Below are positions 19,991 through 24,539 of a stretch of DNA of 30,474 bases, in pieces. Below the pieces are notes generated by a model. It worked only from the letters and a program-made list of their open reading frames with translations. It was not told the DNA's origin and did no database searches. Within the stretch, counting starts at the first letter, position 1; the number at the start of each line of letters is the position of its first letter. Made by a program: the position numbers and the translations under genes. This DNA comes from a bacterium (lineage in GTDB: Bacteria; Patescibacteriota; Minisyncoccia; Phycocordibacterales; Phycocordibacteraceae): positions 1 through 30,474 of the forward strand of contig JAKAMJ010000001.1 in NCBI GenBank assembly GCA_021812955.1, written 5' to 3'.

Positions 19991-22715
19991 TCACTCCCCC
20001 ACCGCCGCCCTCGTCACCGGCCCGAAGAACCCGCCCGCAGGGTAGATATGATGCGCGAGCTGGTAGCGGACGAGGGCGCGATAGGTGGAGAAGCCGAATG
20101 TGGCGGTCTCGTTGTTGAGAGAGCCGGGGCCTGTGGCTGATACCGGGAAGCCGTGGGTGTTGAGGTACCGCTGGAGGGCGGTGACGTCTGGGCCGGTCTG
20201 GTGGAGCTCCAGGTTGCGGGTGAAGGTGAAGGAAGAAGCTGCTGGGGTGGTTGGTTGCTGTGGGGTTGTAGTGCCATGGAGGATGGCGGAGACGTTTGCC
20301 AGGACGGCTGGGTCGACGTTGAAGGACGTGAGGACGTTAAGGATGGAGGTGACCTGAGACGAGGTGAGGCCGGTCGATCGGGTGGCTTGTGTGGCGGTCT
20401 GGCCAGGTAGGGGGTTGGGGGTGCTCGGGAGGCCGAGGGCAGGGATGGAGATGGAGCCGTGCGGGGTTGGGGTGGTTGTGGTTGTCGGAGCGGGGGTGGA
20501 GGTGTCTACCGTTACCGACGCGCTGAGGCTGGTGGAGATGTTGCCGGCGGCGTCCTTGGCCCAGGCGTACAGGGTGTGGAGGCCGTCGGAGAGGAAGGTG
20601 TAGGTGGTGGGAGCGGTGGCGGACCAGCCACTGTCCCCTGCTGATGGCGGAGTGGCTGATTCGTTCACCAGGTATCCGGTGACGGCGGTGTTGTCGGTTG
20701 CAGTGAAGGAGGTGATGTGGATGGTGCGGGAGGAGCCGGTGCCGGGGAGGGTGAAGGCGGTGGTGGTGGGGGCGGTGGTGTCTACCGTTACCGATGCGCT
20801 GAGGCTGGTGGAGATGTTGCCGGCGGCGTCTTTGGCCCAGGCGTATAGCGTCTTGAGGCCGTCGGAGATGAAGGTGTATGTGGCTTGGGCGGTACCTGCC
20901 CAGCCTGCGTCCCCTGCTGTTGGAATGCTTGATGACTCGTTCACGAGATAGCCGGTGACGGCGGTGTTGTCGGTGGCGGTGAAGGCGGAGATTGGGACGG
21001 TGAGGGAGGAGGAGACGGAAGGGAGGGTGAAGGAAGTGACGGAGGGAGCAGCTGTGTCGGAGGAGGTTGTGGAGACACTCATGTCAAAGACGGCGACAAC
21101 GGGTCTTCTGTCATATTGGCTCGTATGTTGAAGAGAAAAGGAAAGGTACAACTTTCCATTTGCAGAATCATACGCTGGTGAAATATTACCTTGATAGTTA
21201 GATGGCAACCATGGGAGCGTTATCTGCCACATAGCATATGGATACAGGTCGTTCGGGAACAAATTTCCCAACTTAACCGCGGTGAGATTGTTTTCGCCCG
21301 GGTTGTTCCCAGAGGTACCCGCAGTCGCGGACGCATTGGACACATTGCTGCTGACATTATTCCCGGGTGAGTTATTTCCTGAACTGTCTCCGACGTCATA
21401 TGCCCACGCGCGGGCGGTATATGGATATTCGTGTTGGCCTTTACTGCCGACACCCGGGTCATAGCAACAGGTGTCTTGTTCTGTACCATTTTCTACCATG
21501 ACGGTTGAGCCGCACATGTTTCCATTTACACAGAGCGGACCCCATCCCTTGCTCAAGCTTCCTGTGCATTGTTGACTTAGATCTGAAGTCCCGAGACCAT
21601 AGCAATAGCCTCCGAAATTGGCAGGGTTCCCATTCCCTATCGGAGGTGCACAATCTGCCGTGGTCGTGGGAGAATCGCCAGACAGCGGGTTACACGAACC
21701 CGTCGAATGTATCCCGAAGAACAGGAGCGACGTTGAGTTGTTTATGAAGGTCGCGCCGGTAACGTTATCGGCGGTTCCATAATAAGCCGTTACTGGTTGC
21801 GTCGCGCTTCCCCATGTCCCCCACCCCGCCGGCGTATGGCCATTCGGGTAATACAGGAGCGCCGTGGCGACACCGCGGTTATCAGGCGGCGGTGCCGGAG
21901 CGTTCACCATGCCTAAACTGTTGGGATCGAACACGACGCAGGACGGGCCGTATGATGACGTGCTTATTATAGAATACCCTCCGCCGCCGCCGAAAGCGCT
22001 TCCGCCCAATTGAGCCTGAAGACCTGAGGGAATACTTCCGACGAATACGTTCGAATCCCGTTCTGTGATGTTCGTATCCATATTAGAGGATGTGTTCAGG
22101 CCATACATGCCGGAGAAGGTCGTCGTGGACGATAAATCCGTCCCGTGTGTTGAGAATGAGAGGAATTCGGTGGTATGTGGAGAAGTGCCATAGTGATCGC
22201 CTGAGGATTCGAGTAACGTTGAATTATTATCGAAAAGCATCAAACCTCCTCGGAAACCGAGATTTTTGGGCGTGAACGTCCCACCAGGCCCATTGTTGGA
22301 AAAGTTCCCATTCGTGATGTCATGATATGTCTGCAAGAAAGTCGCCGCAGGAATGCTGCTATAGCTCGACGTCGTCGTACTGGACAATACCGCAGGGATC
22401 CCGATTTCTCCCACCTGACTGCCTGTACAACCCGTATCAACTGTCCCGCCAGTTATGAAGAGTGACCTGTGAGGAGGATTGTATGCGATGAAACCGGTAC
22501 CGTAACTGCCTAAACACCCCGTCCCCGGACTCGGAACATAAAACGCACCTTGATATGTAAAATCGCTCTGTTGTATGAGCAAACCGGCGGAGGCGTGAGC
22601 GGCTGAGGAGAGGAGGGTTATGGAGAAGAGTGCGAGGGTGAAGAGCCCTTTGGTGAGTGGCTTTAAGAGCGGGTTAGTTACTCTCTCTCTCTCTTGATTT
22701 TTTGATGCTCAACAT
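19991..22715 (-). CDS. Large surface protein: signal peptide, Cys-rich unknown domain, two Ig-like repeats, Pro/Thr linker, peptidoglycan-binding domain; currently out of frame at an (AG)7 tract
   Basis: The frame is open 22708-19991 and contains a signal peptide (KPLTKGLFTLALFSITLLSSAAHA) upstream of the ORF-track TTG, but no start codon precedes it in frame. ATGs at 22719 and 22715 are in the other two frames. C-terminus FTRNL..GPDVTALQRYLN..GFFGPVTRAAV is PG_binding_1-like. Confidence 0.85.
20502..21053. repeat. Tandem 276-nt (92-aa) intragenic duplication encoding Ig-like domains
   Basis: gtgtctaccgttaccga recurs at 20502 and 20778; AFTATDNTAVTGYLVNES...TLYAWAKDAAGNISTSLSASVTVDT occurs twice. 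Confidence 0.95.
22681..22694. repeat. (CT)7 / (AG)7 simple sequence repeat between the start codons and the signal peptide
   Basis: ctctctctctctct read directly. Confidence 0.95.
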
Positions 22716-22740
22716 ACATAGCCTTGGGTTGTTGCTTGGT

Positions 22741-22749
22741 ATTTTAGCA
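22741..22749 (-). promoter_or_regulatory. Extended -10 TGCTAAAAT of the surface-protein gene
   Basis: TGnTAnnnT; AAGG 6 nt before ATG 22715. Confidence 0.6.
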
Positions 22750-22801
22750 TACTGGGAGTGGGGTGTGTGATGGGCGGGGGTGGTTTGTGGGTATTGGGGA
22801 G

Positions 22802-22834
22802 AACACCCGCGGCGCCGGAGGCGCCGCGGGTGTT
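22802..22834. terminator. Strong hairpin ending the atp operon
   Basis: 15-bp perfect arms aacacccgcggcgcc/ggcgccgcgggtgtt directly after the atpC stop. Confidence 0.8.
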
Positions 22835-23083
22835 TTACAAGAGGATAGTCGCTTGATTGCCCGAGACTTCGGCGATTCCGCCTTCGGCTATCGGAAATCG
22901 GTGAACCGCGCCGTCGGGAGAGGTGACGCGCGCCTCGCCCTCGCGCAATTCAGAGACGAAGGCTGCGTGCCCGCCGAGCACCTCGAACACACCTTCCGTG
23001 CCGGGGAGCGACACCGAACTGACCTCTCCGTCGAAGAGGTTGTCGGCGACGTGCGCTATCGTGAGATGAAAATATTTCGCCAT
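22835..23083 (-). CDS. atpC: ATP synthase epsilon subunit, N-terminal beta-domain only (82 aa)
   Basis: LPGTEGVFEVLGGHAAFVSEL..G, GGIAEV; last gene of the operon. Confidence 0.9.
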   Translation of the reverse strand: MAKYFHLTIAHVADNLFDGEVSSVSLPGTEGVFEVLGGHAAFVSELREGEARVTSPDGAVHRFPIAEGGIAEVSGNQATILL

Positions 23084-23087
23084 CGTG

Positions 23088-24539
<1,452 letters not shown>

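Follow-up and report, generated by a model that had tools for sequence, protein, structure and literature searches.

A minus-strand gene for a putative surface protein of about 900 residues, located in a 30,474-nt stretch of a Patescibacteria genome (GenBank assembly GCA_021812955.1, contig JAKAMJ010000001.1, positions 1 to 30,474; hereafter the window), carries near its 5′ end a perfect run of seven AG dinucleotides. The run lies between two start codons that are one base out of register and the sequence coding for a signal peptide. This locus most probably acts as a translational phase-variation switch, being a contingency locus built on a simple-sequence repeat, and the allele in the window would be in the OFF state. 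A first-pass annotation of the window had already read the repeat as a phase-variable slippage switch, and that reading is now supported by alleles of 7, 10 and 11 units, by two sister-strain assemblies that are one unit apart (L005 and L007) and by the recurrence of the same design in relatives.

The anatomy and the reading frames of the locus were read directly from the letters of the minus strand. Read 5′ to 3′, AAGG (22725-22722) is followed by CT, a first start codon (ATG1, 22719-17), a single T, a second start codon (ATG2, 22715-13), the segment TTGAGCATCAAAAAATCA, the (AG)7 tract (22694-22681) and TAACTAAC. With the frame that encodes the signal peptide and the bulk of the protein called the body frame, the elements that set the reading frame are these:

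22722-22725, minus strand: AAGG, a Shine-Dalgarno-like motif with spacings of 2 nt to ATG1 and 6 nt to ATG2; a sister haplotype, described below, has CGAGTCC here.
22717-22719, minus strand: ATG1, in the body frame at 6, 9 or 12 units; here it opens a 13-codon open reading frame.
22713-22715, minus strand: ATG2, staggered by +1, in the body frame at 8, 11 or 14 units; here it too opens a 13-codon open reading frame.
22709-22711, minus strand: TGA that closes the body frame upstream and leaves it without a usable start.
22681-22694, minus strand: (AG)7, the putative slippage tract, which in ON alleles would encode R-E repeats within the signal-peptide n-region.
22674-22680, minus strand: TAACTAA, in which two nested TAA codons stop both off frames directly behind the tract; the body frame reads V-T-N here.

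At seven units the ATG1 frame gives the product MYVEHQKIKRERE and ends at TAA 22680-78, and the ATG2 frame gives MLSIKKSRERESN and ends at TAA 22676-74. The third frame, which is the body frame, has 905 open codons between 22708 and the stop at 19991-93, encoding KPLTKGLFTLALFSITLLSSAAHASA and then the body; after TGA 22711-09 it contains no ATG, GTG or TTG until TTG 22582. The layout given by the first-pass annotation (ATG-T-ATG, (AG)7 and their coordinates) proved correct in every detail, and so did its statements that both ATG frames stop early, behind the tract, and that the third frame holds the signal peptide and the body behind a TGA and has no start. The repeat is perfect, its unit length is not a multiple of 3, and it sits between the two start codons and the signal peptide: where n is the number of units, n = 0 mod 3 brings ATG1 into frame, n = 2 mod 3 does so for ATG2, and n = 1 mod 3 (7, 10, 13) leaves both out of frame. 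Judged by these frames, the window allele, with n = 7, is OFF, and alleles of 6 or 8 units would be ON.

The tract stands apart from the rest of the 548-kb assembly. A first-order Markov model predicts 0.018 AG/CT-class runs of 7 units in a genome of this size, and the runs observed number 323 of 3 units, 22 of 4, one of 5, none of 6 and one of 7. No other non-GC dinucleotide repeat in the assembly is as long as (AG)7, its sole AG/CT run of more than 5 units; the tract is not a chance product of base composition.

The window was compared with Logan contigs (contigs, not raw reads) of four mine-drainage sequencing runs. In all four the tract had 7 units and no indel in it was reported, and for three of them (X1, X3 and X4) the listed unitigs include ones that cover the tract from end to end, with 7 units and without differences. 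A second metagenome-assembled genome (MAG) at NCBI, GCA_021842765.1, is identical over 7,092 nt, (AG)7 included. The first-pass annotation had named an assembly error, hiding a length that restores the frame, as the result that would overturn it; contigs and second MAG keep 7 units, and the frame stays broken.

Other lengths exist in nature. A protein search returned a protein of 910 aa (P0002), 98% identical, that starts MLSIKKSRERERERVSNPLFK..., and three ENA assemblies of a 98%-identical sister strain place the gene in the same atpD-atpC context with 11, 11 and 10 units. In the assembly that encodes P0002 (L005, ERZ27233564), the atpD-atpC-hairpin-promoter-ATGTATG context is followed by (AG)11 and ATG2 opens the 910 aa; L006 (ERZ27233565) also has 11 units and a 912-aa product from ATG2 (P0014). 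In the third assembly (L007, ERZ27233562) there are 10 units, both ATG frames are closed, the allele is OFF, and the gene caller finds only 749 aa. Between window positions 23472 and 20191 (3.28 kb) the sole difference between L005 and L007 is one AG unit, and the pair matches the appearance of a single slippage event. The ON product that the first-pass annotation had predicted for a gain of units (MLSIKKSRERER...V.NP...) therefore exists, since the two (AG)11 alleles encode MLSIKKSRERERERVSNPLFK..., and the tract is not invariant across populations, its natural lengths being 7, 10 and 11.

All four alleles keep both ATGs. The window allele lies on a different flanking haplotype, with five changes around AAGG and a diverged n-region; the sister-type leader haplotype was also found in two of the four mine-drainage runs (Logan contigs). 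The OFF allele of the window shows no secondary damage, its DNA from ~22580 to 20800 being identical to that of the ON alleles and its 905 codons open. A dN/dS of 0.2-0.4 was obtained over the body for the window allele against the ON alleles; it is uninformative, with every substitution falling in the C-terminal part, for which a 96% identical paralogue exists.

The first-pass annotation had also suggested a look for simple repeats at the 5′ ends of other surface genes, and the same tract and dual-start design was found in relatives of the genus. Tracts of at least 7 AG units occur in 12 of 161 genomes of the genus. Loci in genomes G129 and G020 share the order ATGTATG, spacer, (AG)n, off-frame stops, signal peptide and a protein of ~1000 aa; at G129:C1 and G129:C8 the tract is followed by TAAATAG, with stops in both off frames. 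ATG1 is in frame at G129:C8 (n = 11) and G129:C9 (n = 7), and ATG2 is in frame at G129:C1 (n = 10, with the same leader as C8) and G020:C2 (n = 9). The ATG2 product of G129:C1 is annotated by NCBI, and the G129:C9 protein has beta-helix, polysaccharide-deacetylase and PG_binding_1 domains. With the leader of G129:C1 as query, the mature protein was found behind many different leaders, and no further evidence of dual starts came from this search. Comparison thus supports the use of both staggered starts in nature, and because ATG1-ON and ATG2-ON loci occur in relatives, it supports the reading in which two of three lengths are ON.

A mirror version, (CT)n (L076, L077, L058; L078-L082), precedes other secreted proteins, with ATGTATG in three G129 copies and with a single ATG in G120, G219, G088 and G232. 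In the three G129 paralogues, (CT)7, (CT)13 and (CT)10 stand ahead of a signal peptide and a protein of ~790 aa; one of the G129 proteins has a Peptidase_S74 fibre-chaperone domain. The copies examined in G129 are all off frame. In G120 two contigs end or begin at such a (CT)n tract, of 9 and 8 units, as if the assembly had broken on a mixture of lengths.

Domains of the mismatch-repair proteins, MutS_V and MutL (DNA_mis_repair), were not found in the window genome (90% complete), and none of 41 genomes of the genus (the window genome and 40 relatives that are at least 97% complete) showed MutS_V, in a search in which control genomes scored positive. The lineage appears to be without MutS/MutL mismatch repair. 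It is established in other bacteria that dinucleotide slips stay uncorrected when mismatch repair is missing, and by analogy they may stay uncorrected here. Such a deficiency fits high repeat instability, the genome-wide scarcity of repeats and the retention of repeats where variability is useful.

We propose that the surface gene is read from its own promoter-like element behind the atp operon, and its two starts one base out of register (ATGTATG) are followed by (AG)n and by nested TAA stops that end both wrong frames. Slipped-strand mispairing in replication would add or remove AG units, and the slips would be left uncorrected because the lineage seems to have no MutS/MutL. Each 2-nt step would put the signal peptide and the body of ~860 residues in frame with ATG1, with ATG2 or with neither. 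At n = 7 only two peptides of 13 residues would be made, and the gain or loss of one unit would bring back a secreted protein that carries Ig-like domains and a peptidoglycan-binding anchor. The slippage mechanism, its rate and its reversibility within a population are what we infer from the alleles at hand.

Several observations weigh against this reading. For the window haplotype n = 7 is the only length seen (four runs, two MAGs), and no within-sample mixture of lengths appeared in the contigs of the four runs. The 10- and 11-unit alleles are consensus sequences from three assemblies with consecutive ENA numbers, which are probably one study, and 10 versus 11 units could reflect strain differences instead of switching. 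The three G129 (CT)n paralogues (C7, C10, C4; L076, L077, L058) are all off frame, with n = 1 mod 3, a somewhat surprising pattern if two lengths in three give an ON state. The first-pass annotation had claimed two staggered ATGs with two of three lengths ON; this holds for ATG2, through the ATG2-ON alleles, and both ATGs are used in relatives, but no ATG1-ON allele of the window's gene is among the alleles found, and by analogy with the relatives ATG1 may be used at this gene as well. With only 7 units the tract may also seldom change its length, and the window strain could simply carry a copy of the gene that was inactivated recently.

This last thought leads to the main alternative, a young pseudogene or strain-fixed frameshift, in which a chance repeat indel hit a dispensable accessory gene and the lengths 7, 10 and 11 are ordinary strain polymorphism. 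We judge it unlikely. The single length of the window haplotype and the lack of a mixture within samples speak for it, as do the accessory nature of the gene, given that 200 other genomes of the family yielded no match to its N-terminal domain (N-domain), and the position of the 7-unit and the 10- and 11-unit alleles on different flanking haplotypes. However, the 905 codons hold no second lesion and the N-domain matches that of the ON alleles exactly; a common haplotype carries both the 10- and the 11-unit alleles, with one unit as their sole difference; ATGTATG, tract and nested stops are conserved together in several species and leader families, where both frames are seen ON; and base composition predicts no such tract.

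It is quite improbable that the 7-unit allele is expressed by recoding, through read-through or reassignment of TGA 22711-09, ribosomal frameshifting or transcriptional slippage, so that the OFF state would be leaky or absent. An ATG at 22750-48 is in the body frame and parted from the body by TGA 22711-09 only, and repeat tracts can in general provoke polymerase slippage. However, ATG 22750 lies inside the -10-like element described below and is probably not transcribed, no frameshift-stimulating structure was found in the fold of the leader RNA, and transcriptional slippage is documented mainly for long homopolymers. TGA behaves as a normal stop, ending the surface gene and an NYN gene and closing 148 of 357 long frames, on which grounds reassignment was rejected, and housekeeping reading frames are full length under table 11. 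As for a sequencing or assembly error behind the number of units, repeats are prone to mis-assembly and the assembly graph is branched around the locus, but the 14-nt repeat is well within read and k-mer length, the other lengths sit on contigs built with k = 141, and the identical independent MAG, the spanning 7-unit unitigs and the four runs with no indel in the tract leave such an artefact a negligible probability; it is excluded by independent assemblies.

The contingency-locus reading also involves the region upstream of the starts. The neighbouring minus-strand genes upstream of the surface gene are atpD (23088-24458) and then atpC (22835-23083), and two elements lie between atpC and ATG1:

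22803-22833, minus strand: 14-bp GC-rich hairpin with loop TCC, directly after the atpC stop codon (22835-37); the self-complementary match covers 22802-22834.
22741-22749, minus strand: TGCTAAAAT, resembling an extended -10 element (TGnTAnnnT), ~22 nt before ATG1 and without variation among the four alleles.

The hairpin (22833-22803) has no following T-run and is not listed by a strict terminator scan of the region. It likely marks the end of the atp operon transcript, and the surface gene would therefore be its own transcription unit. TGCTAAAAT is plausible as an extended -10 that gives a short leader including AAGG. A strict sigma-70 scan of the region listed no full -35/-10 promoter, so that the promoter reading comes from inspection of the letters. 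The spacing of AAGG (2 nt against 6 nt) would favour ATG2. The leader matched no Rfam family at threshold, and its predicted RNA fold is not unusual (z = +0.95).

The assembly graph of the Logan contigs branches at window positions 22585-22835. One contig contains the cassette from the promoter via the tract to the cleavage site at 22585 and then continues into a different protein, and another, of 1135 nt, has window positions 22695-22752 in common and a different upstream context; neither branching sequence (loose ends 22585 and 22752) is present in the window's MAG. The cassette of promoter, ATGTATG, (AG)n and signal peptide seems to serve more than one gene in the community. When the N-terminal 60 residues of the ON allele were used to query a protein collection, at 500-1590 aa, only the query itself matched, and the collection therefore holds no other gene body with the cassette in that size range. 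JGI metagenome contigs scanned with the leader and with the signal-peptide DNA gave no match.

The product of the surface gene is well supported, by its sequence features, as a secreted and cell-wall-anchored protein, with two coding parts:

22586-22663, minus strand: signal-peptide coding part KPLTKG-LFTLALFSITLLSS-AAHASA with AXA cleavage motifs, identified by eye.
19991-22585, minus strand: mature protein, made up of the N-domain, two Ig-like repeats, a Thr/Pro-rich linker and PG_binding_1, with the stop TGA at 19991-93.

The h-region of the signal peptide is identical across alleles and the n-region (22640-22662) has diverged. In a Pfam search the protein matched two Ig-like Big_13 repeats (best Big_13 stretch 20501-20701) and a C-terminal PG_binding_1 (20006-20197) only; the N-domain (~520 aa) was left without a family. 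Its AlphaFold2 model is poor (pLDDT 48), and the Foldseek matches in the PDB are weak (E ≥ 0.016) and all to beta-propellers (glycosidases, sialidases, viral attachment proteins), at most a hint of a beta-propeller fold. An attachment role is a guess, and the role of the protein at the cell surface and the selective benefit of switching it are likewise inferred.

The N-domain DNA (window 20800-22580) is 100% identical between the window strain and the sister strain, against differences of 2-5% in atpD, in the leader and in the C-terminal part. The passenger domain may thus have swept or been transferred recently; a chimeric assembly is a possible alternative. A 69% identical copy of the N-domain occurs elsewhere as a lipoprotein (P0003). 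The window genome also holds a second copy of the C-terminal part with Ig-like repeats, linker and PG-binding domain (G000:C63:12081-12719, L164), which is 96% identical to residues 698-909 and runs off the contig end, the anchor being common to both genes. This paralogue probably explains why substitutions between alleles cluster at 20070-20600.

The window is contig C23 of an assembly (genome labelled G000) of 548 kb in 70 contigs, 90% complete. The best relatives of its atpD, at 85% identity, are Paceibacteria, Parcubacteria and Patescibacteria MAGs. The first-pass annotation was right to assign the genome to the Candidate Phyla Radiation (CPR): it is a Paceibacteria-type member of the Patescibacteria with a genome of 0.55 Mb. 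The sequencing runs that hold the window sequence are mine-drainage metagenomes, and none of the runs holding it is an RNA run. In the public annotation of the window genome and of GCA_021842765.1, owing to the frameshift, only a C-terminal fragment of 363 residues is called (P0013, window 19991-21082), and the 5′ two thirds of the ~900-residue surface gene are without annotation.

The locus resembles several known systems in mechanism. The opa genes of Neisseria carry (CTCTT)n in the signal-peptide coding region and form an adhesin multigene family in which most copies are OFF at a time. They share with the window locus a repeat in leader-peptide coding sequence, and the several AG/CT-tract paralogues of G129 look similar; unlike it, they have a pentamer unit, a single ATG and an unrelated protein family. 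Closest in its start codons is licA, in the lic1 locus of H. influenzae, where (CAAT)n is preceded by initiation codons in two of three frames (PMC2212159). As at the window locus, the tract lies between starts and body; and as is proposed for that locus, two length classes are ON and one is OFF, slipped-strand mispairing does the switching, and the product alters the surface. However, the repeat unit of licA is a tetranucleotide and its product is a cytoplasmic choline kinase that is not secreted, the proteins are not homologous, and switching rate and phenotype were measured for licA, whereas the window locus is known from sequence alone. In oipA (hopH) of H. pylori the number of 5′ CT dinucleotide repeats sets the on/off status (PMC10564699). 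Here too an AG/CT-class dinucleotide tract lies in the signal-peptide-coding 5′ region and isolates are on or off by repeat number, but oipA has a single start codon and encodes a Gram-negative outer-membrane beta-barrel of a host-associated pathogen. Membership of the window protein in the Hop/OipA family was rejected, as Pfam gives only Big_13 and PG_binding_1, and the likeness is mechanistic.

A search of full-text literature on phase variation in Patescibacteria/CPR found nothing on the subject. The nearest report describes a hypervariable PTD-repeat gene of a Gracilibacterium, a probable surface protein for which slipped-strand mispairing is discussed (PMC6851277). It too is a repeat locus in a probable surface protein of a CPR genome, but its in-frame 9-nt repeats alter protein length and sequence and cause no ON/OFF frameshift at the start of the gene. 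The slippage ON/OFF switch, known from human pathogens, is apparently unreported for Patescibacteria/CPR.

Long AG tracts extend beyond the genus: at least 8 units were found in 41 of 301 sampled genomes of the phylum (40 of 251 genera). Tracts of 8-18 units are found inside or at the very start of reverse-transcriptase (RT) genes (Pfam RVT_1), which account for 9 of 20 tracts sampled across the phylum:

L065:4309-5388 (G108:C2), L064, L069, L068 and L074: RT genes with AG tracts in relatives, RVT_1.
L169, L171-L173, L176, L177 and L183-L185: RT genes with AG tracts in the phylum sample, RVT_1.

The tract often lies directly before the motif GIPIGNLTSQ.FANIYLNE.DQF, which we take to be typical of the RTs of diversity-generating retroelements (DGRs). 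Some of these copies are in frame (G108, n = 15 and 16; G118, n = 13) and some are broken (G159, n = 15; G234, n = 10). This pattern suggests that AG tracts may switch targeted hypermutation on and off; no paper on RT switching was found in a search for literature joining DGRs and phase variation. The RT of the window genome has no AG tract. At the 5′ end of its frame (RVT_1, L163:1357-2406), just upstream of the candidate GTG starts, lies G12, the longest homopolymer of the genome (G000:C66:5894-5905, L163:1395-1406), which may be another slippage-prone tract controlling an RT.

We lean towards a still wider view, in which ultrasmall Patescibacteria have a phylum-wide contingency system. A conserved cassette, made up of the ATGTATG dual start, an AG/CT tract, nested off-frame stops and a signal peptide, would fit different gene bodies and switch surface and cell-wall proteins and, in many lineages, also the DGR reverse transcriptase.

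A large fraction of bacterial diversity belongs to the Patescibacteria/CPR; most members are thought to live in attachment to other cells, the genes that mediate this contact are largely unknown, and most of these organisms are uncultured. A slippage switch is a hallmark of genes on which selection at the cell surface fluctuates, and with its conserved dual-start design the window case offers, as far as sequences can tell, unusually direct natural evidence of ON and OFF states. Phase variation, best known in human mucosal pathogens, would here operate in a free-living mine-drainage community, in genomes of ~0.5 Mb in which MutS/MutL were not found. Natural ON and OFF alleles would open a sequence-only route to candidate host-interaction or phage-receptor genes, which could be tracked in metagenomic time series. 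If the system is indeed phylum-wide, such tracts would point to the genes through which organisms that are yet uncultured make contact with hosts and phages.

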